Assembly: GCA_043805085.1 (NCBI GenBank) | Contig: JAZDII010000086.1 | Coordinates: forward strand, 2,807 to 66,806 | Direction of reading: 5' to 3' | Length of the DNA stretch: 64,000 nt | From: a bacterium | GTDB lineage: Bacteria > Verrucomicrobiota > Verrucomicrobiia > Methylacidiphilales > Verrucolacustridaceae | Part shown: piece by piece, positions 596-47,954 of the stretch | Layout of the letters: each line of letters starts with the position of its first letter | How positions within the stretch are numbered: the stretch's first letter is position 1 | Made by a program: the position numbers and the translations under genes | Notes under the pieces: generated by a model | Told to the model about the DNA's origin: nothing | The model's input: the letters and a program-made list of their open reading frames with translations, nothing else | Database searches by the model: none

Positions 596-677
596 CCAGC
601 GTCAACTTGACGCGCACTAACGAACTTTATTTACGCCTTGGCCGCAAGCAGTAAATTGTTCGCCAACACCCTAAAAC

Positions 678-1541
678 ATGAAAAAAGCAATTCTTGGCGC
701 GGTCTTCTTCCTTCTCGCCGTCATTTTATTAAGCGCAGTTCTTTCCCCGCCGGTTTTCTGGATAGTGGACAGCTGGATGCCGCGCGTTTTCCCCTTCCGC
801 CGCGTGTTCAACCGCATGGTCATGATCAGCGCGCTGGTCTCGCTCTGGCCCTTGGCGCGTTACTGGGGCGTGGCGTCATGGAAACAACTCGGACTGGCCG
901 ACCCGGCTTGGAAAAAGGAATGGCTGCGCGGCCTTGCTTTAGGCTGCGCCACGATGGCCGTCCTCTTTTCATTGCACCTCATCGGCGGCGCGCGCGCATG
1001 GCTCAATAATTTAGGAGGACAAAAAATCGCGGCGTTCCTTGCCACCGCGCTCGTCGTCGGATTTTTAGAAGAACTGCTTTTTCGCGGCCTCTTCTTTCAC
1101 GCGCTGCGGGAAAAACTCGGCAAATGGGCCGGTCTCTGGGCGGTTCTTTTATCCGCGTTCTTTGCCGACGCGCATTTCCTCAAAGCTCAAAACGTCGCCC
1201 TCCCCATTCACTGGCAAAGCGGCTGGGAAGCGTGGGGCGGCATCCTGCCCACGCTCTCTCAAACAGTGGAAATTCTGCCGCATTGGTTCAGCTTGTTTTT
1301 AGTGGGATTGATCCTTTGCGCCGCCGTGTGGAGACAGCGTAGCTTATGGCTGGCGATTGGCTTGCACACAGGCTGGATACTGATCCTCAAATGCGGCGAA
1401 AGCTTAACCATCCCCTCGCCCTTGCTGCCTAATTTTTGGTTTGGAGAAACCGTCACAACGGGCGCGTGGGCCATTTTTCTCCTGTTTGGTTTGCTCGCCG
1501 TTTTTCTCGCGCCGTCCCGACACCAACAACCGACACGATGA
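678..1541 (+). CDS. CPBP (CAAX/Abi) family intramembrane metalloprotease
   Basis: The 287-aa ORF is multi-pass hydrophobic. It carries EELLFRG and FFADAHF (FxxxH), the motifs characteristic of CPBP proteases. Confidence 0.8.
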   Translation: MKKAILGAVFFLLAVILLSAVLSPPVFWIVDSWMPRVFPFRRVFNRMVMISALVSLWPLARYWGVASWKQLGLADPAWKKEWLRGLALGCATMAVLFSLHLIGGARAWLNNLGGQKIAAFLATALVVGFLEELLFRGLFFHALREKLGKWAGLWAVLLSAFFADAHFLKAQNVALPIHWQSGWEAWGGILPTLSQTVEILPHWFSLFLVGLILCAAVWRQRSLWLAIGLHTGWILILKCGESLTIPSPLLPNFWFGETVTTGAWAIFLLFGLLAVFLAPSRHQQPTR

Positions 1542-2200
1542 ACATCTGGCTAAAAAGTCTTCTTGATCTTGTTTATCCCGCCGAGCCGCCGCCGGATGAA
1601 CTGCCCGTCCTCCAACCACCCCTTTGCCAGCGTTGCGGCGAACCTTTTGAAGGCCAAATCGCCGCCGCCTTTATTTGCCGCTCTTGCCAAACCCACACAT
1701 GGGCCATCCGCCAAGCGCGCGCGCCTTATGTCTCCGCTGGTTACGTCAGAGAAACCATCCACGCCTTCAAATACGAACGCCAATTTCATCACCTCCCCCA
1801 GCTTTCTCAATGGCTGGAAGAAGGCTATCGCCGCTTTTATGCCGACGAATCCTTCGACGGCATCACGCCCGTGCCGCTTCATTGGTCGAGGAAATGGGCG
1901 CGCGGTTTTAACCAAGCTAAGGAACTTGCGCACCGCCTCTCGCGTCAAACAGGCTCCCCCTTGCTCGATTGTCTCAAACGAATCAAAAAAACAAAAACCC
2001 AAACCCGTTTGCGCCGCAGCGAACGTTTTCAAAACCAACGCAACGCTTACGCCCTCAAAATCGGTGCAAATGTTCGGGGCGCGAAACTCCTTCTCATTGA
2101 CGACATCTTCACCACCGGCGCCACCACCGACGCCTGCGCACGCGCCTTGCGCAAATCCGGCGCGGCGGAAGTGGCTGTGTTGACGGTGGCGAGGGGATAA
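1538..2200 (+). CDS. comF: ComF family phosphoribosyltransferase-domain protein
   Basis: The C-terminus has the PRTase motif LLLIDDIFTTGATTDA. The N-terminus has paired CxxC motifs (CQRCGE...CRSCQ). The ATG at 1538 overlaps the upstream stop (ATGA), so the ORF-track start at 1436 is an upstream extension inside the CPBP gene. Confidence 0.8.
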   Translation: MNIWLKSLLDLVYPAEPPPDELPVLQPPLCQRCGEPFEGQIAAAFICRSCQTHTWAIRQARAPYVSAGYVRETIHAFKYERQFHHLPQLSQWLEEGYRRFYADESFDGITPVPLHWSRKWARGFNQAKELAHRLSRQTGSPLLDCLKRIKKTKTQTRLRRSERFQNQRNAYALKIGANVRGAKLLLIDDIFTTGATTDACARALRKSGAAEVAVLTVARG

Positions 2201-2277
2201 TCACTCAAATTAAGGACACCACCGCTGCCGCCCCTTGCTTGACAGCAGCGCAACGGAACTTACCCTTTCCCTTTTGA

Positions 2278-2985
2278 ATGAAACAACTCTGGACATTTTT
2301 TGCCTCCTCTCTTGGCCGCAAATACCTCATGTCCGTTACAGGCTGCGCGTTGTCCCTTTTTGCCCTCGTTCACATGGTCGGCAATCTGCAAATTTTTCTG
2401 GGAAAAGAAACCATCAACGCCTACGGCTATCATCTGCACACTTTGCCATGGCCTATTTTCTGGGGATTCCGACTCGGCCTCGCCACATGCGCGCTGGTTC
2501 ACATTGTCGTAGCGGCATGGCTGACGACGGAAAATCTTCTCGCTCGCCCCAAAGGTTACCGCGTCAAGAAAGCCGTGGAAGCCTCATGGGCCTCGCGCAC
2601 GATGCCCCTCACAGGCGCGCTTCTTTTGGCGTTTATCGTCTTTCACTTGGCTAATTTCACCTTGGGCATCACGCCGGAACCTTACGACATTACCCTTCCC
2701 AGAGTGACGATGGAGATTAACGACAAGATAGTGAAAGTATTTGATGTCTACGCCATGATGATTTCCTCTTTTTCCATTCCGTGGCTGTCTGTTTCTTACA
2801 TCATCGCCATGGGATTGCTTTGCTTTCACCTCGCCCACGGCATCGGCAGCATGTTCCAAAGCGTGGGCTTGAGAAATCACAAGTGGCGTTTCATCCTTGA
2901 TAAAGCCGGCGCGGCCTACGGCTGGTTTCTTTTCATCGGCTTTGCCATCATCCCCGTCGCCGTGCTAACAGGATTTTTAAAGTGA
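2278..2985 (+). CDS. sdhC: Succinate dehydrogenase/fumarate reductase cytochrome b subunit (single large membrane anchor, b558 type)
   Basis: The 235-aa protein has about five hydrophobic helices with conserved His residues (LVHMVGN, CFHLAHG). It lies directly upstream of the flavoprotein and Fe-S subunits. Confidence 0.75.
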
Positions 2986-2986
2986 T

Positions 2987-4903
2987 ATGAACCTCGACGC
3001 TCACATTCCCGACGGCCCCTTGGTGGAAAAATGGGAACACCATAAGTCCAGCAGCAAACTCGTCAGCCCGCCCAACCGCCGCAAGCGGCGCGTCATCGTC
3101 GTCGGCTCCGGCTTGGCCGGAAGCTCCGCCGCCGCCACTTTAGGAGAGCTTGGTTACAACGTGGATTGCTTCTGCTTCCATGACAGCCCTCGGCGCGCGC
3201 ACAGCATCGCGGCGCAAGGCGGCGTCAACGCAGCCAAGAACTACCAAAATGATAGCGACAGCGTGCAGCGTCTTTTTTACGACACGCTCAAAGGCGGCGA
3301 TTTCCGCGCGCGCGAGGCCAATGTCTACCGCCTCGCCGAACTAAGCGTGCGCATCATTGACCAATGCGCCGCGCAAGGCGTGCCCTTCGCCCGCGATTAC
3401 AGCGGCCTCCTCGCCAACCGTTCCTTCGGCGGCATGCAAGTGAGCCGCACCTTTTACGCGCGCAGTCAAACGGGCCAGCAACTGCTCCTCGGCGCATATT
3501 CCGCTCTAAGCCGTCAAATCGCCCTCGGCACGGTAACAATGCATAACCGCCACGAGATGCTGGACGTCGTATTATCAGACGGCCACGCAAAAGGCATCGT
3601 CACACGCGATTTGGAAACCGGCGACATCCGCCCGTGGAGCGCAGACGCCGTCATCCTCGCCACCGGTGGTTACAGCAACGTCTTTTTCCTTTCCACCAAT
3701 GCCTGCGGCTGCAACGCCACCGCCCTTCACCGCGCTTACAGAAAAGGCGCGGGCTTCGCCAATCCCTGCTTCACCCAAATCCATCCCACCTGCATCCCCC
3801 AATACGGCGAGCACCAATCGAAGCTGACGCTGATGTCTGAATCCTTGCGCAATGATGGCCGCATTTGGGCGCCCAAGAAAAAAGAAGACTGCGGCAAAGA
3901 CCCTCAAGAAATTGCCGAAGAAAATCGCGATTATTTTCTCGAACGCAAATACCCCGCCTTCGGCAACCTGACCCCACGCGACATCGCCTCGCGCGCCGCC
4001 AAGGAAGCTTGCGACGCGGGCCACAGCATCGTCCCCGGCGGTTCAGGCGTTTATCTGGACTTTGCCGATTCCATTCGCCGCTTCAACCAAACCGCGATTG
4101 AAGAACGTTACGGCAATCTTTTTGAAATGTACGAGCGCATCACCGGCGACAACGCTTACAAAACGCCCATGCGCATCTACCCCGCGCCGCATTATACGAT
4201 GGGCGGTCTTTGGGTGGATTATGATCTCATGAGCAACGTCCCCGGCCTTTTCGTTCTGGGCGAAGCGAACTTCTCCGACCACGGCGCCAACCGCCTCGGC
4301 GCATCCGCGCTGATGCAGGGCCTCGCCGACGGCTATTTCATTATCCCCGTCGCCATCGCCAATTATTTTGCCTCCATCCCGCTCGGCTGCCCCAACATTG
4401 ACGCCCCTGAATTCCGCGACGCTCTCCAAGAAACGCGCGACCGCACCAAACGGCTCCTCTCCGTCCCCGGCAAACGCTCCGCCCGCTCGTTCCACATCGA
4501 ACTGGGCAAAATCATGTGGGAACACTGCGGCATGGCGCGCAACGAACGCGGCCTGCAAAAAGCTCTTTCACTCATCCCGGCTCTGCGCGAAGAATTTTGG
4601 AAAAACGTGCGCGTCACCGGCGGCGCAAGAGAACTCAACCCCGAACTGGAACGCGCCGGCCGCGTGGCGGACTTCCTCGAATTCGCCGAGCTGATGTGCC
4701 GCGACGCCCTTGAACGGCGCGAATCCTGCGGCGGCCATTTCCGTGAGGAATATGAAACGCCTGACGGCGAAGCCAAGCGCGACGACGCTAACTTCGCGCA
4801 CGTCGCCGTGTGGAAATTTCAAGGCGACAATCGCCCTCCAAAAAAGCACAAAGAAGAGCTTTATTACGAACAAACGAAGATGATCGTCCGCAATTACAAG
4901 TAA
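2987..4903 (+). CDS. sdhA: Succinate dehydrogenase/fumarate reductase flavoprotein subunit
   Basis: [14 protein letters not shown] is the FAD-binding fold. [10 protein letters not shown] holds the covalent-FAD histidine. [10 protein letters not shown] and the C-terminal [12 protein letters not shown] motif are also present. Confidence 0.95.
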
Positions 4904-4906
4904 CCC

Positions 4907-5659
4907 ATGAACTTCACTCTCAAAATCTGGAGGCAAAAAACCAGCGACGCCAAAGGCGGCCTCGAGACCTACTCCCTCCAAGACGTTTCGGAAGATATTT
5001 CTTTTTTGGAAATGCTCGACACGCTCAATGAACAACTCGTGAACGACGGCAGCGACCCTGTCGCCTTTGACCATGATTGCCGCGAGGGCATTTGCGGCAT
5101 ATGCTCGCTCGTCATCAACGGCGTCCCGCACGGTCAACGCAAAACCACCACCTGCCAGCTCCACATGCGCCATTTCAAAGACGGCGAAACCATCACCATC
5201 GAGCCTTTCCGCGCCAGACCCTTCCGCGTCATCAAAGACCTGATCACAGATCGCGCGCCGTTCGACACGATCATCCAATCCGGCGGCTACATTTCCGTGA
5301 ACACGGGCGTGACGATTGACGCCAACGCTATCCCCATCCAACACGAAATCGCAGAAAAAGCCATGGACGCCGCCGCGTGCATCGGCTGCGGAGCTTGCGC
5401 TGCGGCCTGTCCCAACGCCTCCGCCATGCTCTTCGTCGCCGCCAAAATTTCCCATCTCAATCTCTTGCCGCAAGGCAAACCGGAGAAAGACCGCCGCGTT
5501 CTCACCATGACTCAAGCCATGGACGCCGCAGGCTTCGGCAACTGCACGAACATCGGCGAATGCCAAGCCGTCTGCCCCAAAGACATCTCTCTGGATTTCA
5601 TCGCCAAAATGAACCGCGACTACGCCCTCGCCTCCGTCAAAAAACTCCTCGGCGTCTAA
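4907..5659 (+). CDS. sdhB: Succinate dehydrogenase/fumarate reductase iron-sulfur subunit
   Basis: The cysteine clusters [10 protein letters not shown] (2Fe-2S), [12 protein letters not shown] (4Fe-4S) and CQAVCPK (3Fe-4S) are all present. Confidence 0.95.
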
Positions 5660-6987
5660 ACCGGCGTCGCCGTCAGCGTTTGAGTAATGTCGGCAGGCGA
5701 CTGCGCTTCAGTGAACTCCTCCAAAACCCGATCCACAAAAGGATCAACATACGTCAACGTCGGATACTGATTGCTCAACTGAAAATCAATCCGCCCGTTT
5801 CGCTTCGTCGCCTTCATAGAAATTTCATCCAAGCGGACGGGGTACATCTGCCACTGCTCCTCGGGATGAACAAAATTATCCAACTGCTCCCACAAATTCG
5901 CCACATGCCTCTCCATGCCGGCATCCATCAACCCTTGATTCATGTCCACCCGATCCGTGCCCAGCACAATCACCACGCCTAAATTAAAAATCGGCTGGTC
6001 TTTATAATCGCCGTCAACTTTCGCGTCAAAAATCTTAGTCTTCAACGTCGCTTCATGATGCGCGTGCGCCACATTGCGCTCGCTTGCGGGATCGTCAAAA
6101 TCGCAAGAAGTCTTGATGTAATAATCCATCTGCAACGTCCACTGCAACTCCGCCGGAATTTCAAAACGCGCCGTGCCGCGCGCGGTCAACGTCGCATCGC
6201 CCGCTTGCGTCAACTCCACCCTGTCGCTGGAAATGCTGTAAGCATAACCCAATCGCAAGCCCCTTGAATGCGACGTGTCGGCCAGTCGAATCTCAAAACG
6301 ATTCTCCCCCTTATACTGCGCCAAATAATTTCGATCGGGAACAACCCAGCCGCTATAAGTCTCGTAAGGAATCGGATTACGCACAAGAGACTCAATCTCA
6401 AAACCGCGCCCCGCGCTTGAAAAATGCGCCTCTATCACCTTGTTCTTTGCCCCCGAAGACGGCCACGTCACGGCGGGATCATACGCGCATGCGTCAATCC
6501 ACAGCCGCGAAGCTCCTCCGCCTGTCAGCGGCGCGCCCGGGTTGATAATCATCGTCGGACTACTGCTCATAATTGGTTGATCTCCTTCCGTCCACTCCGC
6601 CTCATCTTCGTTTCCAAAAGCGCGCCGTTCCCAGCGAGAACCTAATCCCAAAGCGCCCGCGCCGGAAGCTCGCCCATCGGCTTCGATCAAGAAAAAATCG
6701 CAATCACTCGCCGAAGTGTCAAACAACCGGCTCCGCCGCACGCCAAGCGCAGCCTTCACTGAAGCCGCGCCGCTCAACTGCGCGCCCGGCAACGCGAACC
6801 GTCCGCAAAGGCTGGCGCGAACGGTCGCCACGCCTTGAACCGAGGCCATTAAACCCGTCTTTTCATAAGACAGGCTCGCTTCCGTATAACTGCTCCCCGC
6901 CAGCGAACCTTGCAAACTCTGAAAAGCCTGCAACTCCGCCGACACGCTTGCCGCGCCGGAAACGCTCGTCTGAATATCCCGTATCAT
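5656..6987 (-). CDS. Hypothetical protein, tail-fibre-like (degenerate G/A/S/V repeats at the N-terminus); last gene of the phage-like module
   Basis: The 443-aa intact ORF overlaps the upstream 134-aa gene by ATGA. The N-terminus repeats [11 protein letters not shown] / [13 protein letters not shown] / [12 protein letters not shown] recognise no catalytic motif, so the function is inferred from context only. Confidence 0.4.
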
Positions 6988-7388
6988 GCTTCCACAACCG
7001 TCAGCGCCCCTGCCGCAAACCGCGCCTGATCGCCGTTATTCACCGTTTTGCTGGAAGTCAACGCGCCATAATACAGCATATTCCCCGCGCTTGCCGCGTC
7101 GAACAAAGCAAAATGCGTCACCGTCCCCCAATCGCCTCCTGAAGCCGATGCAAACTCAATCGCCACTCCATTACTCTTGGCTCCGTTAGAAGCGTTCGGC
7201 CAATTTGTGGAATTATTCGCCACATCCTTCCGCGCATAAGCGTAACCGCTCACTTCCGTGCCGCCGCCGGCGTCATTCGGCGCCGCCGTGTAAAGAGCCA
7301 CATAAATCGTGCTCGGCGGCGTGAAACTATTTCCGCCCAACACCAAATCCACCATTTTATTTTCCAAATAATCCGACTTCGCACTCAT
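6984..7388 (-). CDS. Small phage-associated conserved protein (family seen next to tail-fibre genes)
   Basis: The 134-aa sequence LVLGGNSFTPPSTIYVALYTAAPNDAGGGTEVSGYAYARKDV...DWGTVTHFALFDAASAGNMLYYGAL...NGDQARFAAGALTV matches a pattern I recall from phage and prophage proteins; this is memory, not a search. An AGGA-type ribosome-binding site lies upstream. Confidence 0.45.
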   Translation of the reverse strand: MSAKSDYLENKMVDLVLGGNSFTPPSTIYVALYTAAPNDAGGGTEVSGYAYARKDVANNSTNWPNASNGAKSNGVAIEFASASGGDWGTVTHFALFDAASAGNMLYYGALTSSKTVNNGDQARFAAGALTVVEA

Positions 7389-7422
7389 ACTTTTTTCCTT
7401 TCTATTTTAAACTTCAAAAAAT

Positions 7423-9852
7423 TCATCCTCTCCCCTGTCGCTTCCAACCGACCGCCCAATTCCTCACCGCAAAATCCTTCCCCTGCTCCACCCAAACCGT
7501 GAAATGCGCCCGCAACGCCGCGCCGCTCAACATAGTGAGAACCTTGTGCCGTTCCTTCCCGAACACCTCGCCGTAATACACATCCTTGGCCGCGCCCCCG
7601 CTCGTCTCCAACCGCAAACACACCAGCCCGCTTGAGCATTTCACCACGCTCCAATAAAACTCGTAAAAACCCTTCTCCGTCTCCGGCTCGCCGAAATCCA
7701 GCCAGCCCGTCCTCAACCGCAAAACATTTCCCTTCAGCACGCTCTTATTGTTTTTAAGAAAAATCGCCCCGAACCCCTGCTGCTCCGCCGCCTCAATGGA
7801 AGCGGAATTAGAATCCACCGTCGTCACGCCCGCCGTGTTCGCAAACGAGCCGAAAGGCCGCGCCAATTTTCTTAAATCCCAAACAAACAATTCGCCGCGC
7901 AAGGTCAACCCAACCAAACGTCCGTCCGCCGCAGACACGCTCGTCACGCTGATAAACGACGGCAAATAAAAAGGCCCCGTCAATTCCCCTCGCTCAAAAT
8001 CAAACGCAAAACCCGCCATGCCCCCGAACTTCGCCCGCGTCCAAATCCACCACAACCGATTGACAAAATCCGCTGCCCCGTGCGGCGCGACGCTGTCGTT
8101 AATATCCGCATACTCGCGGATATAACCGCTGATCTTTTCCGAAACGAGAGCATCCAACGGCGCGCTCGTTGCGGCCTGCGGCGACGCGCTGATGCGGTAA
8201 AGATTAAAATCCTTGCCTAAATAATAGTAACTCCCGTTCGTCCAATTGACGCCCGTCCAAGAATTGACAGGCCCGCACAAAACCGCGTGTTCCGCTTTTG
8301 CTTTAGATTCGTAAGCCATCCTGCCGGCAAAAGCCAACACCCCGCCGCGAAACTCCGCCAACGCCGTAATCCCCTCGCTGCCCGAACCCTGCGGCGTCAA
8401 ATCCTCATAAAGCTCCTCGCCCGTCGTCTCCGTCAACACCTGCTCCGACGTCCGCTCCTGCGTAAATGAAACGCGAAGCGGCCTCTCCCAATTTCCCGCC
8501 ATATAAATGCGATTGCCCGCACAAACAAACGCCCGCGACGGCGCGGGAGAACGCGCCGCCAACAAATTTTTCTCCTCCACCAAACGCCCTTCCCGCGCCA
8601 AATCCGTCCGCGCCCGCTCATTCACATGCCAAGGATAAACCGTCACCCGCTGACTCTCGTTCGGCAGCTCAAAAAGCCGAAGCAATTTCGTTCGTCGGTC
8701 GCATGTGCAATCCAAACAAATCTCCGCCGCATAAACGCGAATCCCAGTCCAACCATCTGCATCCGGCGAAAGCCCGTCCTTTTCAATATTGACCTGCACC
8801 GCGTGCGCCCTTGAACCGACGCGCGAAGTCTCAATCCGCGCATCTGAACTCGGCGCCGACTCCACAATACCCAGCCGTTCGTCCTTTTTAATATACGTCA
8901 GCAACACCCGCACGCCCATGCGCACATAAGCGTTATAGACCTTTTCAAATTCATCCGTCTCCACACCGCTATGCCGGGGAGGAACCTCATCCGTCCCGCC
9001 TCCAATCGCTGACGACGGAAACAAAGGAGCTTGCTCCTCTGAAGAAGAAACATGCGCGCAAGTCACCACTCCTGATGCATTCGGATCGCGCTCAATAAAC
9101 CAAGCCAGCTGCTGATTCGTCGACAACGGCGCGGGACACGTCACCACATAATTTAACGGATCGCAAAACGTCCCCTTGCCCGCGACGCTGCTGCTAAACC
9201 CGATCCCCGTCCCGCCGCGCACGGTGACAAGAACATGAGCGCGCCGCAAACCCGCCTCAAATCTCAATCCGCCCGCCTCCAAAAAAGACGGCGCGGAAAC
9301 TTGATTCACCATGCCCACCAACGCCAGCGTTGGCGGCAAAGGCGCGACGCCGACTCCCATCACGCTCAAACAATTTAAATCCGCGTCATAAACCAAATTC
9401 GCGTCAACACCGTTGCCCAAATAAAGCCGTCCCGAAATTAGCGTCCCATTCCACTTCACGCGCGGCGACAAACCCCGCCACAACACCTGATGCACAGAAT
9501 CAACCGCCGTCAGCGTCGGCCCGCCGTCCAACCGTCCTTCAAACTCAACATCCTTGCCCGCGTAAAACACGCCCAGCCCCATGTCGTTGGCAAAATCATA
9601 AAAAACCAAACACGTCTCGCCCTCATTCACCAACTTCACACAACACGTGTGATCCGCGCGCGACACGCCCAACGCGCTCTTCAAGTCTCCTAGCGAAACC
9701 AATCCCCACAACCGCTCATACTCCGGCGCGCGGCTAAACCCGCCCGACGGCCTCAACACCACACCCTCCGCATATTCCAAAGGCGTCACCTTCCGGTTCT
9801 TCGCGTCGGGAAAACGATCCACGCCGCCGAATGTCTGAATTGCCGTCAACAT
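7423..9852 (-). CDS. Large beta-rich hypothetical protein (positional analogue of a podovirus tail-tube/nozzle protein)
   Basis: The 809-aa intact ORF is rich in Gly, Val, Thr and Trp, which suggests a beta-propeller-like fold rather than a helical portal. It lies directly downstream of the capsid-like gene. The function rests only on size, composition and position. Confidence 0.35.
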   Translation of the reverse strand: MLTAIQTFGGVDRFPDAKNRKVTPLEYAEGVVLRPSGGFSRAPEYERLWGLVSLGDLKSALGVSRADHTCCVKLVNEGETCLVFYDFANDMGLGVFYAGKDVEFEGRLDGGPTLTAVDSVHQVLWRGLSPRVKWNGTLISGRLYLGNGVDANLVYDADLNCLSVMGVGVAPLPPTLALVGMVNQVSAPSFLEAGGLRFEAGLRRAHVLVTVRGGTGIGFSSSVAGKGTFCDPLNYVVTCPAPLSTNQQLAWFIERDPNASGVVTCAHVSSSEEQAPLFPSSAIGGGTDEVPPRHSGVETDEFEKVYNAYVRMGVRVLLTYIKKDERLGIVESAPSSDARIETSRVGSRAHAVQVNIEKDGLSPDADGWTGIRVYAAEICLDCTCDRRTKLLRLFELPNESQRVTVYPWHVNERARTDLAREGRLVEEKNLLAARSPAPSRAFVCAGNRIYMAGNWERPLRVSFTQERTSEQVLTETTGEELYEDLTPQGSGSEGITALAEFRGGVLAFAGRMAYESKAKAEHAVLCGPVNSWTGVNWTNGSYYYLGKDFNLYRISASPQAATSAPLDALVSEKISGYIREYADINDSVAPHGAADFVNRLWWIWTRAKFGGMAGFAFDFERGELTGPFYLPSFISVTSVSAADGRLVGLTLRGELFVWDLRKLARPFGSFANTAGVTTVDSNSASIEAAEQQGFGAIFLKNNKSVLKGNVLRLRTGWLDFGEPETEKGFYEFYWSVVKCSSGLVCLRLETSGGAAKDVYYGEVFGKERHKVLTMLSGAALRAHFTVWVEQGKDFAVRNWAVGWKRQGRG

Positions 9853-9870
9853 AAAGAAATTTGTTTTACA

Positions 9871-9912
9871 AAACCGCCGTCGAAAGGGGCGGCGTCATGG
9901 CAACGCCGCCCC
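9871..9912 (-). terminator. GC-rich hairpin after the capsid-like gene (partial terminator or attenuator)
   Basis: On the minus strand a perfect 9-bp stem forms between ggggcggcg (9912-9904) and cgccgcccc (9894-9886), followed by ttt. A weaker alternative stem, cgccg/cggcg, is followed by gttttgt. The structure lies in the 80-nt gap between the 486-aa and 809-aa genes. Confidence 0.45.
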
Positions 9913-9932
9913 GTTCCTTTCATTCACTTCCA

Positions 9933-11393
9933 TCAGGACAAAGAAACATCCACGCCCCGATGAGTTACCGCATGGCGAATGAGCACATAATTCGCGCCCA
10001 AACCATCCGTCCGCACGCACGGCGCTTGGCCGAAGATGGACTTCACGCCAATGCCCCTATCATCGCCGTAATTTTGATGATCCGAAACAATACGCAGATT
10101 CTTAATCCGGCCATACGCCCGCACCGCAGCCATCGCGCCGAAGAGAAACGTCGAACCAATCGGCACGCCATTCTCATTCGCCTCAATAATCAGCGAACCT
10201 TCCGGGTGAGCATCCGTATGCTTAGCCGCATTCCACGTCACGCCGCCCAGAGTCGTCTCGGCAATGCCGCCCGCCGCAGCTCTCAAACGCCCGGCCATCA
10301 CCAGCTTATTGCCGGAATTGGTCACATACTGATAGAAACCCCACTTGCCCGCGTTCGCGCCTGTCAGGTTATAAACAATGACATAGCGATCTGTCGTGAA
10401 CGTCTCCGCATCTTGATCGGCAAAGAACTTAAAGTCGTAGTTCGAGAACGACTCAAAGTATTGCGGCGCGGGCGTCCGAGCCACATTAGCCGTATTGCCG
10501 CCGCCGTAAATATCCTGCGCCGTGTCCGCCGCTGTAACCGCCGAACCCAAATACGCCTTCGGCAACATCGGGCAACCCACCGGCCCCGCGCCTGCATAAT
10601 CTACAGGCGAAAATTCAAAAATACCCTGACCAGCCCAATCCGTATAACCGCCAGCAAAAAGCGGATTATCCTGACCGCGCAAAGCCGCCTCGCGCAAACC
10701 CTGCAAATAAGCCGTCGAAGCCTTCACACTGCGCAAACCCGTCTTCGTTCCCACCACAAGAAACTGATGAACCTCGCTGCCGTGAACCGACTGGCCGATA
10801 TTCGCCGGAATCGCGCCGTTGATCTGCGCGGCTTCCGCTGCGTCCTCGATTACCGTCGTCGAAAGCGTGTCGACCAACGTCAACGTGCTGTCGCTCTGCC
10901 TGCTGTTAGGGCGAACGGTATTGCGCTGCTGCGCGCTATTGATCAACTTCAACATCATCGCCGTCTGCTTATAACGCCCCATCCAATCGGCCAGCGCGTC
11001 GCGGCATCTATTATCCAACTCCGAGCCGACATCCGTGAACTCCGATGCCGCAAACTGTAACCCAACAACCTTGCGCACAATCTCCACGCGCACATCATAA
11101 CTCCCCAAACTCAACTGCTCCTCCTGCCCCTCCGCGTCATTGCTGCCTAAAATCGCCGGCCCGCCGAGACCCTCCATCACATGAAAATGCAACGTGTCCC
11201 CGCGCCCCTTGCTCAAATCCTCGCGCACATAAAAAGGCTTGCGACTGCCGTCCGTCCCCTCCAACGCGCTGAAAATATCCTTCGTCTGACTCAACAACTC
11301 CAAATGATTGGACCAAAACTCTTCCTTAGCCTTTGGATCTTGCGCCAAAACATCCGCCAAAGAATTAACCTCTAATTTATTTAATGAACTCAT
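9933..11393 (-). CDS. Phage major capsid protein-like (N4-gp56 / DUF4043-type, HK97 fold predicted)
   Basis: In this 486-aa protein the segment ...LSKGRGDTLHFHVMEGLGGPAILGSNDAEGQEEQLSLGSYDVRVEIVRK... matches the (K)GD-x-I-x-F...L-x-G-x-G...GD..LEG-x-EE-x-L...V-x-ID-x-xRH pattern I recall for N4-type capsid proteins. The assignment needs an HMM or structure check. Confidence 0.55.
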   Translation of the reverse strand: MSSLNKLEVNSLADVLAQDPKAKEEFWSNHLELLSQTKDIFSALEGTDGSRKPFYVREDLSKGRGDTLHFHVMEGLGGPAILGSNDAEGQEEQLSLGSYDVRVEIVRKVVGLQFAASEFTDVGSELDNRCRDALADWMGRYKQTAMMLKLINSAQQRNTVRPNSRQSDSTLTLVDTLSTTVIEDAAEAAQINGAIPANIGQSVHGSEVHQFLVVGTKTGLRSVKASTAYLQGLREAALRGQDNPLFAGGYTDWAGQGIFEFSPVDYAGAGPVGCPMLPKAYLGSAVTAADTAQDIYGGGNTANVARTPAPQYFESFSNYDFKFFADQDAETFTTDRYVIVYNLTGANAGKWGFYQYVTNSGNKLVMAGRLRAAAGGIAETTLGGVTWNAAKHTDAHPEGSLIIEANENGVPIGSTFLFGAMAAVRAYGRIKNLRIVSDHQNYGDDRGIGVKSIFGQAPCVRTDGLGANYVLIRHAVTHRGVDVSLS

Positions 11394-11430
11394 AAACCTT
11401 CTTTCTTAAAAATGAGGAAACACGCGCCGC

Positions 11431-12024
11431 TTATTTCCGCGCCTGCTGGGCAGCCGCGCTCAACACCGCCAAAAGCGCGTCTCGCCGATCCGCCCAAGAC
11501 AAACCCTTCAACCTCTCCAACACATGATCCCCCGTCATCGTACTCCTCCCATTCGTTGTCCCAAAACTCCCGGGAGCAGGAGTAAAAGGATTCTTCAAAA
11601 CACCCGTCCGCCGCGCCTCCGCAATAACAGGAACAACCGTCTTCTGACGGTTCGCATTTAAACTGCCCATCCCTTGCCCTTGCGCAGGCGGCGGCGTCAA
11701 ACCCAACGCCTCGCGCGCCAACCGATCCGCACACGTTCCATCCAACTCCGGACGCTCCCGAAGAAACTCCAGAGTCTTCCGCCTCAACGGCGTCAAATTT
11801 TGAAAACGCATGCGCAGCCCTTTCGCAGCTTGATTGACAGGCGAAGCGCTCGATCCCTCCGACAAAGACTGGCCGCTCTCCTCGGATTCCTCCTGAAAAA
11901 CGCCAGAACCAGCGGGCTCAACACCCTGCTGACACACAGACTCCGCAACAAGCGGCTCAACGCGCGCTCCATTGCCTCCTGCCTCTTCCTTCGTCGGTTG
12001 ATTCAAACTCATGCGCGCCAACAT
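11431..12024 (-). CDS. Hypothetical acidic/low-complexity protein in the scaffold position, upstream of the capsid gene
   Basis: The 197-aa ORF is the first gene of the minus-strand block. An alternative ATG lies at 12012. It is rich in Glu, Ser, Gly and Pro with no recognisable domain. Confidence 0.35.
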   Translation of the reverse strand: MLARMSLNQPTKEEAGGNGARVEPLVAESVCQQGVEPAGSGVFQEESEESGQSLSEGSSASPVNQAAKGLRMRFQNLTPLRRKTLEFLRERPELDGTCADRLAREALGLTPPPAQGQGMGSLNANRQKTVVPVIAEARRTGVLKNPFTPAPGSFGTTNGRSTMTGDHVLERLKGLSWADRRDALLAVLSAAAQQARK

Positions 12025-12138
12025 ACGCGCGTTCGCATTTCGTCAACTTAATCGCATGCTCGCGGCAATAAATCTTGACGAACACAAAGCTTTCGCATTA
12101 ATGCTTATCAAGCTTTCCAACCCACGCGGCATTTTTTT

Positions 12139-12711
12139 ATGACAACGACAACAACTCCACCAGTATCGCCTAAAAACACTACAAAGTGTTTCCCGTGGTT
12201 CTCATTTAGTAGTGTTGTCTGCATCATAGCAGCAGCTGCTGCTATTCTTTTCTTTGTCCACACAAATTACTCATTACAAGACAAAGTCGTGCAATTGCAG
12301 TTCCAGTTGGAGCAAACGCGCAATCAATTACAAGAAGCTAAAAATGAAATTGCCCAAACATTGTCGCAATTAGAGCAATCACAATCTCAATTAGAAAAAA
12401 CCCGGCACGAAATTACTCAATTACAACCACTGGCTGAAAAAGCGCGTCTTTTGCCTATCACTGTTTCTTTCAGAAAAGCGCAGCTCGGCCACGGTCAAGT
12501 CCTCCGAATTAGCAGCGAACTCAAAAAAGAGTTGCCACTGAAAATTAAAGTGACGAGTCCAACTTTTAATAAAACAGAAGTTTTTGAAAAAATTGTTTCC
12601 GGAATTTCACCACTCGAAATCGGGCATTTGCAAGGTTGGGCTTTTTCTTCTGGTGATTTAATTGAGATATCAAGCGCAGACTTTGATCCAATAACAACAA
12701 AAATGCCTTGA
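12139..12711 (+). CDS. Membrane-anchored coiled-coil protein, unknown function
   Basis: The 190-aa protein has one N-terminal TM helix (FPWFSFSSVVCIIAAAAAILFFV) followed by a Q/E/L heptad-like stretch (QLQFQLEQTRNQLQEAKNEIAQTLSQLEQSQSQLEKTRHEITQLQ). Its DNA is visibly more A/T-rich than the neighbouring genes. Confidence 0.55.
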   Translation: MTTTTTPPVSPKNTTKCFPWFSFSSVVCIIAAAAAILFFVHTNYSLQDKVVQLQFQLEQTRNQLQEAKNEIAQTLSQLEQSQSQLEKTRHEITQLQPLAEKARLLPITVSFRKAQLGHGQVLRISSELKKELPLKIKVTSPTFNKTEVFEKIVSGISPLEIGHLQGWAFSSGDLIEISSADFDPITTKMP

Positions 12712-12769
12712 TTTTTCATTCAATTTCTTTTTTCTCGAAATTCTCCGCCCCTGCGCAAAACTAGCCCCC

Positions 12770-14404
12770 GTGAAGATCGGCTGCCTGCAACTCAACGCCG
12801 CCATCGGCGCGTTCGACGCCAATATCAAAAAAACTTTCGACGCCTACCAACGCGCCGTCCGCATGGGCGCTGACATCGTCGCCGCTCCCGAGCTTTTCAT
12901 CTCCGGCTATCCGCCGCGCGATTTACTTCACCGCCGCGACTTCATCCAAGCCAACATGCGCGCCCTCGACAAACTCGCCCAACACATCGGCGAAATCCCC
13001 CTCATCATCGGCACACTCGCCCCCAGCGAAAAACGCCCCGGCAAACCTCTCTTCAACTCCGCCGCGATTCTCCTCAACGGCGGCATCCATCGCCTCATCA
13101 ACAAAAGCCTGCTCCCCTTTTACGATGTCTTTGACGAAACGCGCTACTTCGAACCAGCCGAAGACGAACCCTTCATTTTCGCCCATCGCGGCGCGCGCAT
13201 CGGCGTCACCATTTGCGAAGACATCTGGAACGACGAAGACTTCTGGCCTGAACGCCTCTACCGCCGCGACCCCGTGAAAAATCTCGTCGCGCAAGGCGTC
13301 AACGTTCTCATCAACATCGCCGCATCCCCTTGGCATCTCGGCAAAGAACGCCTCCGCCAACAAATGCTAAGCCGCATCGCGCGCGACGAAAAAATCTCCG
13401 TCATCCAAATCAACACCGTCGGCGGCAACGACGAACTCCTCTTCGACGGCCAAAGCATGGCCTTCAACACGCGCGGCGAACTCATCTTCCTCGGCAACGC
13501 ATTCGGCGAAGACGTCGCCGTCATTGACCTACAAAGCGCGCCCATCATCCCTCAACCAACCGAAGAACCCGCGCAACTTTTCTACGCCCTCGCTATGGGC
13601 GTACGCGACTACGTCCACAAATGCGGCTTCAGCAAAGTCGCGCTCGGCCTAAGCGGCGGCATTGACTCCTCCCTCGTCGCCGCCATCGCCGTCGAAGCCC
13701 TCGGCCCCGATAACGTCCTCGGCGTCGCCATGCCCTCCGACTACTCCAGCCCCGCAAGCCTCACCGATGCTGAATCCCTGGCCCGCGTATTAGAAATCGA
13801 ATTTCAAATCGTCCCCATCCAAGAAAACTTTGAACACATCTTGCGAACCCTGCTCCCCACCTTTGGCAAAGCTGCGTGGGACACCACCGAAGAAAACATC
13901 CAATCGCGCCTGCGCGGCCTCCTCCTCATGGCCATCTCCAACAAAACCGAACGGCTCGTCCTCACCACAGGCAACAAATCCGAACTCGCCGTCGGCTACT
14001 GCACCCTCTACGGCGACATGTGCGGTAGCCTCGCCGTCATCGGCGACGTTCTGAAAACACAAATCTACCGCATCGCCGAATGGCTCAACAAAAAAACAAC
14101 CATCATCCCGCCCAACGCCATCGCACGCCCGCCCAGCGCGGAACTGCGCCCCAACCAAACCGACCAAGACACACTTCCGCCTTACGCCGCTCTGGACGAC
14201 ATCATTCGCGCTTATGTTGTCGAAGAAAAAACGCTCGAAGAAATCCTCGCCCTCGGCCACGACGAAAAAACCGTCCGCGACATCCTGCGCAAAATAACCT
14301 CCAGCGAATTCAAACGCCGCCAAGCCCCGCCCACCCTCAAAATCACGCCCAAAGCCTTCGGCACAGGCCGCCGCCAACCCATCGCGCAACGGTTTGAATC
14401 ATAA
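12770..14404 (+). CDS. nadE: Glutamine-dependent NAD+ synthetase
   Basis: The N-terminal CN-hydrolase domain shows ELFISGYPP and GVTICEDIW. The C-terminal ATP-pyrophosphatase domain shows the SGGIDSS motif. The start codon is GTG. Confidence 0.9.
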   Translation: MKIGCLQLNAAIGAFDANIKKTFDAYQRAVRMGADIVAAPELFISGYPPRDLLHRRDFIQANMRALDKLAQHIGEIPLIIGTLAPSEKRPGKPLFNSAAILLNGGIHRLINKSLLPFYDVFDETRYFEPAEDEPFIFAHRGARIGVTICEDIWNDEDFWPERLYRRDPVKNLVAQGVNVLINIAASPWHLGKERLRQQMLSRIARDEKISVIQINTVGGNDELLFDGQSMAFNTRGELIFLGNAFGEDVAVIDLQSAPIIPQPTEEPAQLFYALAMGVRDYVHKCGFSKVALGLSGGIDSSLVAAIAVEALGPDNVLGVAMPSDYSSPASLTDAESLARVLEIEFQIVPIQENFEHILRTLLPTFGKAAWDTTEENIQSRLRGLLLMAISNKTERLVLTTGNKSELAVGYCTLYGDMCGSLAVIGDVLKTQIYRIAEWLNKKTTIIPPNAIARPPSAELRPNQTDQDTLPPYAALDDIIRAYVVEEKTLEEILALGHDEKTVRDILRKITSSEFKRRQAPPTLKITPKAFGTGRRQPIAQRFES

Positions 14405-14411
14405 ACAAAAC

Positions 14412-15077
14412 CTACCTCGCCTCATTCCACTTCAGCGTCCCGTAACGCTCCCGCTCTAGTTGCGCTGCGCGTTTCTCTTCGGCAAACGTCAAAACAGACT
14501 CCTCCATTTTACTTCCTAAAAAAACACACAGCCGCGGCGCAAGAGCTTCAACAATCTTTTCAAGATTCAACAAACGACTTTCCAGCGCATCCAAAAGAAT
14601 ACTCCCCTGATGAAGACATCCCTCTCGCGTCCGTCTCTGCGCCGCTCCGGCAACCTTCCGCCCGTTCAACATCACATCAAACTTTACCGGCTTCTGAAAA
14701 CAAGCATCGCCTGCGCCCACCACTTTTTCCTTCGCTAATTCAACCCGCGCCCCGCAATCTTTCAACCCCTCCGCAATCACCCGATGCGCCGCTTCATAAC
14801 TCCGCGCCGCGCCCATTTGATAAAACTCGTGCCCCCTTGGCGTGACAATCGAATACGTCACATCCGCCCCATGATCCACCAACCCGCCCCCCGTATAACG
14901 CCTCACAAAAACACGCCCCTTCGGCACAACCGAACAACATTGAAAATAACCAATCGAAACCGCCGGCTCACACCACCCATAAAACCTCAAAACCGGCTCC
15001 CTGCATTCCCTCAACAACGCCTCATCCACCGCCATATTCCAAGCAGAACCACCCAAAGAATGAATCAACAAACGCAC
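14412..15077 (-). CDS. Biotin/lipoate A/B protein ligase family protein (LplA/LipB-like)
   Basis: The 221-aa protein shows WNMAVDEALL...LRFYGW..PAVSIGYFQ and AGAAQRR, the pattern of the lipoate-protein ligase catalytic domain. The start codon is GTG. Confidence 0.7.
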   Translation of the reverse strand: MRLLIHSLGGSAWNMAVDEALLRECREPVLRFYGWCEPAVSIGYFQCCSVVPKGRVFVRRYTGGGLVDHGADVTYSIVTPRGHEFYQMGAARSYEAAHRVIAEGLKDCGARVELAKEKVVGAGDACFQKPVKFDVMLNGRKVAGAAQRRTREGCLHQGSILLDALESRLLNLEKIVEALAPRLCVFLGSKMEESVLTFAEEKRAAQLERERYGTLKWNEAR

Positions 15078-15119
15078 AACGGCAGAAATGTCTTAATTAA
15101 AAACGCGACTCTTCCTCAC

Positions 15120-16487
15120 TCACCCTGCCAATCGAATCCTTCGCATATCTGGACTTTCTATTGCCTTTAGAGAAGCGTATGCTGCCGCCTCGTCTCTAGA
15201 AAGCCGTTCCCTACTTTCAATAAAATGGTTTTCAGCCAAAAACGGCTTTCCACCCCACACGTTACCACACCCCTTTTCCAAAAATCTCCAACCTTTCCCT
15301 ATAACATGCCTGCACGCTTGACCTGCAAGGTGCGCCAAAAGATTGGAGGGTTTCTTGGCCTTTGCTTCAGCCCTCATTTCCTCGATGTGATAGAAACAAA
15401 GATCTCTAGCATGTACCATGGTATTCAAAGTGCTTTGCTTTACTTCTTCCGCTCCAATGATTTTCAAATTAAGATTCCTTCGAGGCGCGTAGCTATCTTC
15501 TATTCCCAAACTCTGTTCTAGACCGCCTACTTTGAGTTTCAGATCTGACAAACATTTGGCAAAATCACTTCCCCGACCGTCCAAATCCGTCAATTTGTGC
15601 TTTAGGGGAGTCCCTATCACTTCAAAACTCTTTACCGCAAACCTCAATAACCTTACAGCCATCTTTTTCTGATATGCATAATTAGTATTTTTAGAAAATT
15701 GAAAACTAATTTTTTCTATGATATCCTTGTTGTCGGGGTGAGGCGTCTCCGCCAAAACCACACCATCAAAATCATCATTCCTGATTGCCTCCTCCAATTT
15801 CAATGCAAGCTCACGAATGGCTGCAGCCCCGGTAGGCGAGTTCAACCTGCTACGCTCAAGTTTAAGAATCGTGGAATATTTTAATGCTATAAACAGCTCT
15901 TCCGTTTCAGCCTCAAGAGGCTTAGGTTTCTTTTTTTCTTTTTTTTCACTCTCCTCGTCTTTCTCTTCCTCCTCTTCCACTTTATCTTCTGCAGTTTCAG
16001 AAACCGCCTTAAGAAACAGCCGTTTTAATCTTTCTTTGGTTTTTATTTCTTGCTGGCTTATTTTTTGCGACTCCACTCTTTTTTGCAGATCTACCAAACA
16101 TGCGTCAAAATTCTTTTTTACGCCGTCTATAATTAAATTCGGCATCTTGTGAGCGACTCCTATCTCTCGACAGTAATACAGCGCAAGATTCGCTAACTCT
16201 CGTGCCTTCTTTTCCGAAGGCACAGGATTAGGATCATTCGTATATTTACGAACATAGTCCACTACTCTCTTGTCTTCAGAAGAGAGAGATGATGAGTCCA
16301 ATCTGGCTCCACCAAAAACGCCCTTCTCTATTGCTCTCACCATCTTCAACGCAATTTCAAAAACAGCCACACACCCTTCAGTCGAATGTAATTCATCATG
16401 AACGTTTTTTTTGATTTTAAAAACTGCGCGAATGTTAGGAACTCTCTCAAGAAATTCTTCCCTTAACTCTTCTCTAGTCTTAGGCAT
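15120..16487 (-). CDS. Hypothetical protein with an internal ~100-aa duplication and a Glu/Lys-rich linker
   Basis: The 455-aa intact ORF lies in an A/T-rich stretch. Residues ~35-140 and ~220-325 align without gaps (ALK..AI..F.G..L...DK...KK...IG...DG..F..CL.DL..KV). The linker reads EDKVEEEEEKDEESEKKEKKKPKP. I recognise no known domain. Confidence 0.6.
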   Translation of the reverse strand: MPKTREELREEFLERVPNIRAVFKIKKNVHDELHSTEGCVAVFEIALKMVRAIEKGVFGGARLDSSSLSSEDKRVVDYVRKYTNDPNPVPSEKKARELANLALYYCREIGVAHKMPNLIIDGVKKNFDACLVDLQKRVESQKISQQEIKTKERLKRLFLKAVSETAEDKVEEEEEKDEESEKKEKKKPKPLEAETEELFIALKYSTILKLERSRLNSPTGAAAIRELALKLEEAIRNDDFDGVVLAETPHPDNKDIIEKISFQFSKNTNYAYQKKMAVRLLRFAVKSFEVIGTPLKHKLTDLDGRGSDFAKCLSDLKLKVGGLEQSLGIEDSYAPRRNLNLKIIGAEEVKQSTLNTMVHARDLCFYHIEEMRAEAKAKKPSNLLAHLAGQACRHVIGKGWRFLEKGCGNVWGGKPFLAENHFIESRERLSRDEAAAYASLKAIESPDMRRIRLAG

Positions 16488-16537
16488 AAAGCGCCATTCT
16501 TTACTTTAAAAAATTCACGATCTCAACTTTACTCACT

Positions 16538-31778: not shown

Positions 31779-31814
31779 CTTGTTTTCATTCTTCTTTTGT
31801 GTTACTCATCAAAC

Positions 31815-32039
31815 ATGAAACTGCCCAAACTAACCGTCATCATTGAGCACACGCCGCGATTTTTCGTCGCCACTTGTCCTGAGTTAGACATCGTTAGCCA
31901 AGGGAAAACATTCAAGGAAGCCGAACGCAACATTCAAGAAGCGGTGGAACTTTTTTTGGAATGCGCTTCTGAAAAAGAAATCAACCGCCGTTTAGAACGC
32001 AAAGTGCAAATCAAACGTTTGGAATTAGCGCATGCCTAA
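31815..32039 (+). CDS. hicB: HicB-family antitoxin
   Basis: LTVIIEHTPRFFVATCPELDIVSQGKTFKEAERNIQEAVELFLE fits the UPF0150/HicB fold pattern. I chose the ATG at 31815; the track's TTG at 31797 is less likely. Confidence 0.75.
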   Translation: MKLPKLTVIIEHTPRFFVATCPELDIVSQGKTFKEAERNIQEAVELFLECASEKEINRRLERKVQIKRLELAHA

Positions 32040-37349: not shown

Positions 37350-39349
<2,000 letters not shown>

Positions 39350-39360
<11 letters not shown>

Positions 39361-47925: not shown

Positions 47926-47954
47926 GTAGAAGGGACTTTGTTAGGAACACAACT

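Follow-up and report, generated by a model that had tools for sequence, protein, structure and literature searches.

What does a bacterium do with head and tail genes of a phage that lie between its housekeeping genes without the genes for joining the two parts or for filling the head? The question arises from five co-directional open reading frames (ORFs) of 197, 486, 809, 134 and 443 aa on the minus strand (positions 5656-12024) of a 64-kb stretch of a metagenome-assembled genome (MAG) from the Verrucomicrobiota (contig JAZDII010000086.1 of assembly GCA_043805085.1), here called the window. Coordinates are window positions unless a contig is named; W designates the cassette in the window, A (contigs L001/L008) and B (contigs L005/L006) two further bacterial copies. 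An initial annotation, made from the letters of the window, had described the five ORFs as an orphan virion block, either the stump of a prophage or a domesticated particle-forming system of the gene transfer agent (GTA), tailocin or encapsulin kind.

All five ORFs were found intact where the initial annotation had placed them. From comparison with phage contigs and with copies A and B, the cassette appears to be a domesticated phage structural module that the host lineage took over. That it is functional and domesticated we hold to be very probable; what it does is a matter of much more tentative proposals.

The cassette and its flanks

The five genes are tightly packed, with gaps of 37, 80 and 34 nt from gene 1 onward and then a 4-nt overlap with the 443-aa gene (Table 1). 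On the side of the 443-aa gene the cassette is met by sdhA and sdhB (Pfam), which converge on it, the stop codon of sdhB overlapping that of the 443-aa gene; on the side of gene 1 follow a gene for a 190-aa membrane/coiled-coil protein and nadE for glutamine-dependent NAD synthetase (the synthetase confirmed by Pfam). The base composition is like that of the flanking core genes, as had been noticed at the outset: the GC content and the GC content at third codon positions (GC3) are 0.562/0.642 for the pooled cassette and 0.558/0.666 for the core genes. The codon usage of the cassette in W is slightly more deviant than that of core genes of similar length.

The searches of the window agreed with the first impression that no portal, terminase, integrase or lysis gene, no tRNA and no att site is present in or beside the block. 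Podophage portal and TerL queries had no match among the ORFs of the 64-kb window, the unassigned ORFs had no PHROG head, tail or packaging match, and comparison of the window ORFs with 21 kb of a related phage, including TerS, TerL, DnaB and Rep, gave no match outside the cassette. The whole window is devoid of tRNA and tmRNA genes and of Rfam matches (0 matches), and no pair of att-like repeats bracketing the cassette was found. The 197-, 809- and 443-aa proteins have no match in Pfam, PHROG, NCBIfam or PADLOC, and none of the five proteins matches a PADLOC defence family.

Table 1. Cassette genes and putative control elements in the window, with dN/dS (ratio of nonsynonymous to synonymous substitution rates) among the three bacterial copies
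Feature	Position	Strand	dN/dS	Basis or remark
Promoter-like element	12012-12046	minus		directly upstream of gene 1; TTGACG-N15-TATGTT-N7-ATG
Gene 1, scaffold-like	11431-12024	minus	0.25-0.41	197 aa as called
Major capsid protein, N4-gp56/Phage_capsid_3 (formerly DUF4043) family, 486 aa	9933-11393	minus	0.07-0.09	PF13252
GC-rich hairpin	9886-9912	minus		10-bp stem GGGGCGGCGU/ACGCCGCCCC, within the 80 nt that separate the capsid gene from the 809-aa gene
809-aa tail-associated protein	7423-9852	minus	0.17-0.25	synteny and homology to phage proteins
Gp80-family small virion protein, 134 aa	6984-7388	minus	about 0.1	PF23140
443-aa protein, fibre-like	5656-6987	minus	0.16-0.30	context alone

Origin from the late operon of a short-tailed phage

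Two of the five proteins belong to known virion families. The 486-aa protein, in which a capsid pattern of the N4-gp56/DUF4043 type had been seen initially, passes PF13252 (52.6 bits, cut-off 23, E 4.5e-14), matches phrog_334 'major head protein' (E 1.4e-23) and, with its sequence, major capsid proteins in the PDB (E 1.5e-9); the profile of its family matches four solved major capsid proteins (26de_S, 1e-16; 8h89_A, 3e-16; 9vye_A, 8e-13; 7eel_A, 2e-5). The cut-off of the NCBIfam equivalog model TIGR04387 (capsid_maj_N4) was not reached by the protein (26.2 bits, cut-off 60), which we take to be a distant member of the superfamily and no equivalog of N4 gp56. It is 44% identical over the full length to the capsid protein of the phage-like contig L002.

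The 134-aa protein, which had initially been assigned to a small phage family found beside fibre genes, falls into the Gp80 family PF23140 (165 bits, cut-off 27, E 1.1e-48, residues 4-131 of 134) and matches phrog_240 and PDB 8jou_a from phage GP4 (E 9.7e-17). Among cultured phages the family occurs in 262 records. In small cultured podophages and in GP4 the Gp80-family gene comes after an adaptor or adaptor-like gene and before fibre genes. With the L002 homologue the protein shares 41% of its residues (1-131 of 134). In the Ralstonia podophage GP4 the family is represented by gp80, a fibre I protein (PDB 8JOU, PF23140), of which the 134-aa protein is a clear relative with its gene likewise amid tail and fibre genes; the neighbouring GP4 proteins gp74-gp83 show no hhalign similarity to the 809-aa or 443-aa families.

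The closest phage-like contig, L002 (L010 in IMG/VR, 46-54 kb), encodes a replication initiator, DnaB, TerS and TerL, and its late genes are arranged in the order 361-aa protein, 496-aa capsid protein, 289-aa protein, SU10-type adaptor (PF24175), 806-aa protein, 135-aa Gp80, 282-aa Gp80-domain protein, 502-aa protein and 295-aa protein. All five proteins of W match counterparts in L002/L010 in the same order. The late operon of L090 is likewise syntenic (capsid, 186-aa protein, 292-aa adaptor-like protein, 816-aa protein, Gp80, 489-aa protein), the last three genes being contiguous exactly as in W, and in L007 a gene for a 402-aa protein, the capsid gene, a pair of small genes, an adaptor-like gene and the beginning of a gene like that for the 809-aa protein follow one another. 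What the cassette lacks are the genes that the phages interpose, namely those for a protein of about 190-290 aa, for the SU10-type adaptor and for the second Gp80-domain protein; the adaptor region of the phage relatives is replaced in W by just 80 nt, and disrupted ORFs are absent from the cassette. None of the cultured phages is close to it. The cassette is evidently a piece of a late (virion) operon that belonged to an uncultured short-tailed phage, and the initial view of a block derived from phage virion genes, in an order that mirrors a podophage late operon, was borne out by the synteny with L002/L010 and L090.

Two further observations concern the phage contigs themselves. L010 carries a tRNA-Met. 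On L089, a continuation of IMGVR_UViG_3300045921_000943, genes for 789-, 667- and 438-aa proteins were found at 516-6893 when a further 10 kb of the viral contig was searched for the portal gene; none of the three proteins matches Pfam or PHROG or resembles podophage portals.

The 809-aa protein is homologous over its full length to the 806-aa protein of L002 and the 816-aa protein of L090 (28-29% identity, E 1e-70 to 1e-86) and also to what the truncated gene behind the adaptor-like gene of L007 encodes; in all three contigs the homologue directly follows the head-tail adaptor gene. In T7 the slot after the adaptor gene is that of the nozzle (gp12). In SU10 the gene after the adaptor encodes a 786-residue proximal long-tail-fibre protein (gp12) and not the nozzle (gp17), and nozzle proteins are without sequence similarity to one another (PMC9509320). 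Because SU10 has a long-fibre protein at this position, the position of the 809-aa gene is ambiguous between nozzle and proximal fibre, and we therefore call its product a large tail protein. The assignment as a T7-like nozzle, which the initial annotation had proposed, could not be confirmed: the position is shared with the SU10 fibre, and no sequence similarity to a known nozzle was found. The PDB (by sequence and profile), Pfam, PHROG and 50,697 phage records yielded no match to the protein. With hhalign, similarity was found neither to two podophage portals nor to 25 tail proteins of GP4, Venkman and MW202879, nor, in a self-comparison, between internal repeats. The AlphaFold model computed from three sequences had a pLDDT (predicted local distance difference test) of 31.6 and was unusable.

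The 443-aa protein consists of a periodic A/S/G/V-rich N-terminal extension (residues 1-147), found solely in the closest relatives, and a beta-rich core (residues 160-440), which stands alone in the other homologues. The family is small, with 13 representatives among 1.84 billion proteins, and its members adjoin Gp80-family genes in L002 (502 aa), in L090 (489 aa) and in one contig of the Joint Genome Institute (JGI); the identity to the L002 homologue is 31% over about 240 residues. AlphaFold, given the 13 sequences, predicted the core with a pLDDT of 70-92 and the N-terminus with low confidence, and a Foldseek search with the model against the PDB and BFVD returned nothing below E 0.01. Beta-sandwich and lectin-like Foldseek matches were too weak and are not counted as evidence. 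Three independent phage-like contigs have the homologue next to a Gp80-family gene, which fits a role in a fibre complex. The initial description as a fibre, made from the G/A/S/V repeats, is in keeping with this gene context; the core matches no known fold.

The protein of gene 1 is acidic and disordered at the N-terminus; its C-terminal part of about 110 aa is conserved and ends in a basic tail. Two conserved segments of the C-terminal part align with the 361-aa (L002) and 402-aa (L007) proteins encoded directly upstream of the phage capsid genes, the identity to the L002 homologue being 37% in a short motif of 46 residues (70-111 of the 197-aa protein). Its phage homologues are roughly twice as long. 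From the position of gene 1 next to the capsid gene we infer a putative role as scaffold.

Copies in other bacteria and descent

Copy A is found on a 166-kb contig of the Verrucomicrobiota MAG Betzabe_MAG075, with response regulators upstream and a TPR+GT41 gene downstream, and copy B in the Logan assemblies DRR438493 and DRR438499, with the pheT side upstream and again a TPR+GT41 gene downstream; in W, as described above, the 190-aa gene and nadE are upstream and sdhB is downstream. Thus the flank shared by A and B is that on the downstream side only. Both contain the same five genes between housekeeping flanks, with no other phage gene within 10 kb. W is 41-45% identical to A and B in gene 1, 82-83% in the capsid protein, 56-58% in the 809-aa protein, 81-84% in Gp80 and 50% in the 443-aa protein; among all three copies the ranges are 41-45, 82-83, 56-62, 81-84 and 50-55%, respectively. 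Because the cassette was recovered in independent assemblies (the NCBI MAGs and Logan DRR438493/DRR438499), it is not an assembly artefact. A protein search, the GTDB species-representative genomes and the JGI metagenome contigs gave the three copies and phage-like relatives only, and among the related loci that were compared none carries a full prophage at the place of the cassette.

In a tree of the capsid proteins the three copies form a tight monophyletic clade, (W,(A,B)), that is nested among phage sequences. The branching agrees with the flank shared by A and B and argues for a single acquisition. The TPR+GT41 neighbour has, between A and B, a synonymous divergence (dS) of 1.86 and a dN/dS of 0.17, the same as the cassette genes, from which it follows that cassette and flank diverged together. 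The GC3 of the cassette and its flank is 0.64/0.67 in W, 0.58/0.51 in A and 0.55/0.59 in B, as compared with 0.83 in the phage homologues: the composition of the cassette has moved toward that of each host.

These findings bear on the question whether the cassette could be a minimal mobile or satellite-like element that still moves, borrows portal, adaptor, packaging and lysis from a helper phage, and is itself the object of selection. The three different upstream contexts and the slightly atypical codon usage in W (for genes of this length) would fit such an element, and satellites that encode capsids, the phage-inducible chromosomal islands that form capsids (cf-PICIs), exist (PMC10085698). 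We nevertheless regard it as very unlikely. No integrase, regulator, primase/replicase, terminase, att repeat or tRNA target was found in any copy; the downstream host gene of A and B has a cassette-like dS, and GC3 has shifted to that of each host; near-identical copies across genomes were not found, the nearest being 82% identical at the protein level; and tail genes are forbidden in the models of cf-PICIs (PMC10085698).

The TPR+GT41 gene, which is O-GlcNAc-transferase-like, is located at 15715-17478 in L001 and at 12315-14084 in L005, on the same strand as the cassette and 36-40 nt downstream of it. The two proteins are 60% identical; the window has no such gene. Either the gene is a neighbour that has been conserved, or it serves the cassette as an accessory, e.g. 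a glycosylating enzyme.

A distant capsid homologue (26% identity, PF13252 E 2.8e-10) was also found in Chthoniobacter flavus Ellin428 (L009, NZ_ABVL01000026.1, about 8187-15309), amid a type I restriction-modification system, a MazF-like gene and capsule/glycosyltransferase genes. An 811-aa ORF at this locus matches phrog_9998; the other four cassette genes are not recognisable. The locus was rejected as a further copy, with which it would share only the capsid at 26% identity; in this cultured and tractable verrucomicrobium it may be an orphan-capsid locus independent of the cassette.

Selection on the cassette genes

All 15 ORFs of the three copies (15/15) are intact, with zero stop codons and the gene order kept. 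The dN/dS values, calculated by the method of Nei and Gojobori among the three copies at saturated dS (1.2-3.0), lie between 0.07 and 0.41 and are indicative of purifying selection, which is the result of a check that the initial annotation had called for. They are lowest for the capsid protein and highest for gene 1 (Table 1).

Could the block nevertheless be an inert prophage remnant, the decay of which is yet to come? It is without everything that the life cycle of a phage needs, and it lies amid housekeeping genes, as would be expected of a remnant. Against this stand the intact ORFs, which have retained their lengths and order over saturated divergence, and the dN/dS of 0.07-0.4. In a neutral simulation (2069 codons, 300 simulations) already 0.1 substitutions per site produced a mean of 21 stop codons, the minimum being 10. 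Furthermore, a non-coding, promoter-like element of 39 nt (see below) has been conserved to about 82%. Polishing of the assembly has not produced the intact ORFs either, since a frameshifted gene was left on the same contig: ligA for NAD-dependent DNA ligase (37350-39411, minus strand) is split into two overlapping ORFs in different frames at 38680-39411 (243 aa, the N-terminal part) and 37350-38708 (452 aa), the frameshift near 38680-38708 most likely being an assembly or sequencing error of the MAG in an essential gene. Because of the saturated divergence, the intact ORFs and the low dN/dS, a prophage stump in decay can for practical purposes be dismissed, and inertness is scarcely credible. 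Of the two possibilities left by the initial annotation, domestication is thus the one that stands, with three diverged, intact copies and dN/dS well below 1, and the stump is the one that fell. As judged from the sequences, the cassette is long-resident and selectively maintained.

Promoter-like element and hairpin

Directly before gene 1, TTGACGAAATGCG...GCGTA..TT...GCGCATG is common to W and A (L001 from 9298), which agree in about 32 of the 39 positions of the element (~82%), and this despite saturated synonymous sites. The same layout, consisting of TTGAC(A/G/T), a spacer of 15-17 nt, a weak -10 box and 5-10 nt to the ATG, is found in B (L005, just before 5872) and in the phage contigs L002 (at about 8813) and L007. 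The element at 12012-12046 is a predicted promoter. The layout implies that the mRNA is leaderless or has a very short leader and that gene 1 starts at 12012 in W and at 5872 in B. An alignment with the other copies also indicates that gene 1 of W probably begins with the second ATG, at 12012, which shortens the protein to 193 aa.

For B the public gene call gives a gene 1 of 460 aa (L005 5017-6435), the first 270 or so codons of which overlap a plausible minus-strand gene for a 247-aa protein (5017-5760); with the start at 5872 the protein has 187 aa. The 460-aa version was considered as a cargo fusion and rejected as a gene-calling artefact over a real antisense ORF of 247 aa.

A partial terminator after the capsid gene is a classic means of phage operons to raise the output of capsid protein, and T7 has a terminator after gene 10. 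The gap after the capsid gene in W folds at -29.1 kcal/mol (z -2.8), and A has a near-identical stem in the same place (-21.4 kcal/mol, z -3.8). In L002 the post-capsid hairpin reaches -45 kcal/mol and in L007 a canonical terminator is found there; B has no post-capsid hairpin. As a candidate attenuator or mRNA stabiliser, the hairpin of W would determine the ratio of capsid to tail proteins.

In the phage contigs a promoter-like TTGACA box is present before the gene in scaffold position and again right after the capsid gene (8813-8850 and 11497-11560 in L002; about 783-822 and 3688-3745 in L007), the post-capsid boxes adjoining the strong hairpin or terminator. The repetition looks like a modular design of the late operon.

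Possible functions

We tentatively propose that the cassette could well provide the structural core for a GTA-like or viriform-like particle, derived from phage and controlled by the host, the other parts of which come from elsewhere. The five genes would be transcribed as one operon from the retained promoter, and the hairpin would raise the output of capsid and scaffold over that of the tail proteins. The shortened scaffold-like protein would direct the assembly of the capsid shell; the 809-aa, Gp80 and 443-aa proteins would build a tail or fibre complex. Portal, adaptor and packaging proteins are assumed to be encoded at loci off this contig or to be supplied in trans by a related phage. 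That shells would be assembled is proposed because the retention of a scaffold homologue makes sense only then; that a tail or fibre complex may be made as well is suggested by the three tail-associated genes kept in phage order; and because head and tail are joined only via portal and adaptor, a supply of the missing parts from elsewhere would be the most economical reading.

Several points weigh against a host-controlled particle of this kind. Portal, adaptor, terminase, protease and lysis genes were found neither in the 64-kb window nor in the 21 kb around A, and the adaptor gene has been lost inside the operon, which is odd if head and tail still have to be joined. The 809-aa and 443-aa proteins are assigned to the tail by synteny, the fold searches having found no match. 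The vertical inheritance is backed by one flanking gene, shared by A and B; the saturated dS makes the dN/dS values approximate; and no more than three genomes, all uncultured, are known to carry the cassette.

Alternatively, the capsid shell could be a closed one without a portal. HK97-fold coat and scaffold proteins can form portal-less shells, as in P22. The scaffold-like protein and the capsid protein might thus form an encapsulin-like shell, next to which the tail-associated proteins would form a separate surface or fibre complex, e.g. an adhesin. Both genes of the putative shell are kept, portal and adaptor are absent locally, the latter from within the operon itself, and the scaffold-like protein has retained its C-terminal motifs at about half the length of the phage proteins. 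On the other side, neither a cargo enzyme nor a recognisable partner with a targeting peptide was found, the capsid protein matches PF13252 alone in Pfam and no encapsulin family, and it would be left unexplained why three tail-associated genes stand in one operon with the shell genes, in phage order and in all three lineages. We consider this explanation quite unlikely.

A different use of the same proteins would be interference with infecting phages. The diverged virion parts might co-assemble with, or sequester, the proteins of an infecting phage of the same lineage, which would lead to dead-end particles or to receptors blocked by free fibres. Mammals have an analogue in Fv1, a restriction factor derived from Gag. 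In line with interference, only proteins that form homo-oligomers have been kept, while portal, adaptor and terminase are absent locally; environmental phages have homologues of all five proteins; and the more exposed 809-aa and 443-aa proteins evolve faster than the capsid protein. An arms race predicts, however, that the capsid protein should diversify, and it is highly conserved (82-83% identity, dN/dS 0.07-0.09). Moreover, the five proteins lack a PADLOC match, W, A and B show no defence-island context, and the phage relatives, with a GC content of 58-66% as compared with 48-56% in the hosts, may not infect these hosts. We know of no bacterial precedent for interference by domesticated virion parts and judge it unlikely here.

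These thoughts can be carried further to a portal-less subset of podophage virion proteins that was exapted as such and would be neither a GTA nor a tailocin, an encapsulin or a satellite: either a shell that bears fibres or a dominant-negative 'assembly poison' directed at related phages. We hold this possibility to be improbable, yet not negligible. Whatever probability remains beside the host-controlled particle and the alternatives named above belongs to a cassette that is functional by some other mechanism.

Other features of the window

Three AT-rich islets contrast with the GC3 range of the core genes (0.55-0.74). The first (12139-12711, GC 0.40, GC3 0.34) lies between the promoter-like element of the cassette and nadE and encodes the 190-aa protein mentioned above. 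This protein had been considered as a spanin or as a member of the cassette and was rejected: the weak matches are driven by its coiled coil, the gene is AT-rich, and it is missing from A and B. The second islet (15120-17239, GC 0.42-0.49) encodes proteins of 455 and 233 aa with no match in Pfam, PHROG, PADLOC or NCBIfam, and the third (47904-48509, GC 0.39) a 201-aa protein that matches phrog_3230, the function of which is not known (E 1.6e-23). All three look like recent insertions with no relation to the cassette.

From position 1 to 24000 of the window the GC skew is strongly negative (-0.07 to -0.41) regardless of the strand of the genes, which suggests a replication-strand or lineage-specific compositional bias. 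At 31797-32256 two small adjacent ORFs resemble a HicB and HicA toxin-antitoxin pair and are followed by thermonuclease-like and GNAT-like genes (translations inspected by eye).

Comparison with known systems

The late operons of T7- and SU10-like phages resemble the cassette in the succession of a gene in scaffold position, the capsid gene, (the adaptor gene), a gene for a protein of about 800 aa and fibre-associated genes, and in the hairpin or terminator right after the capsid gene. They differ in that the cassette is without portal, adaptor, core or ejection proteins and terminase. From a prophage it is set apart by the absence of integrase, att sites, lysis and replication modules and of their pseudogenes, and from a tailocin by the presence of a capsid gene and the absence of matches to tube, sheath and baseplate families.

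Encapsulins have in common with the cassette an HK97-fold shell protein, the chromosomal location and the lack of portal and packaging genes nearby. The cassette, however, shows no match to the encapsulin family and has no cargo gene, and it has kept a homologue of a phage scaffold together with three tail-associated genes. Its capsid protein, 44% identical to that of a phage, is a typical phage member of PF13252. The cf-PICIs are likewise chromosomal, with an HK97-type capsid of their own and an incomplete virion (PMC10085698). Their definition requires integrase, AlpA-type regulator, primase-replicase, TerS, TerL, portal and head-tail connectors and forbids tail genes (PMC10085698). The cassette has the inverse pattern: tail-associated genes are present and all core genes of the cf-PICIs are absent.

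In its evolutionary signature the cassette resembles GTAs. The head-tail clusters of known GTAs, which are siphovirus-like, contain terminase, portal, protease and head-tail connectors, and the genes of RcGTA from Rhodobacter capsulatus are spread over several loci. RcGTA and its relatives consist, as does the cassette, of phage structural genes on the chromosome without integrase, replication or repressor genes, which are passed on with the host, evolve under purifying selection and are adapted to it in composition. The cassette differs in lacking terminase, portal, protease and connectors locally, in its podophage origin and in its capsid of the N4-gp56 type. The concept of GTAs used here is that of PMC9662315; in the literature searched, a GTA in Verrucomicrobiota has not been described. 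The initial classification as a system of the GTA, tailocin or encapsulin kind therefore holds in part: the cassette fails the defining features of each, and what remains is the evolutionary signature, which is GTA-like.

With GTAs, tailocins, contractile injection systems and encapsulins, the domestication of phage parts has given bacteria major innovations. To our knowledge, every domesticated class described so far keeps a self-consistent set of parts. The cassette has held on to proteins of both head and tail but not to the parts for connecting the two and filling the head, and yet it has been preserved through very deep divergence; it serves as a clean experiment of nature on the phage genes that a host retains, and it places the rare families of the 809-aa and 443-aa proteins in a clear virion context. 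If the missing parts lie elsewhere in the genome, the particle would be the first viriform derived from a podophage with an N4-type capsid and the first in lineages related to Verrucomicrobiota; if they are truly absent, the cassette would be a new use for virion proteins, and its dominant-negative variant, if true, would be the bacterial counterpart of the capsid-derived restriction factors of animals.

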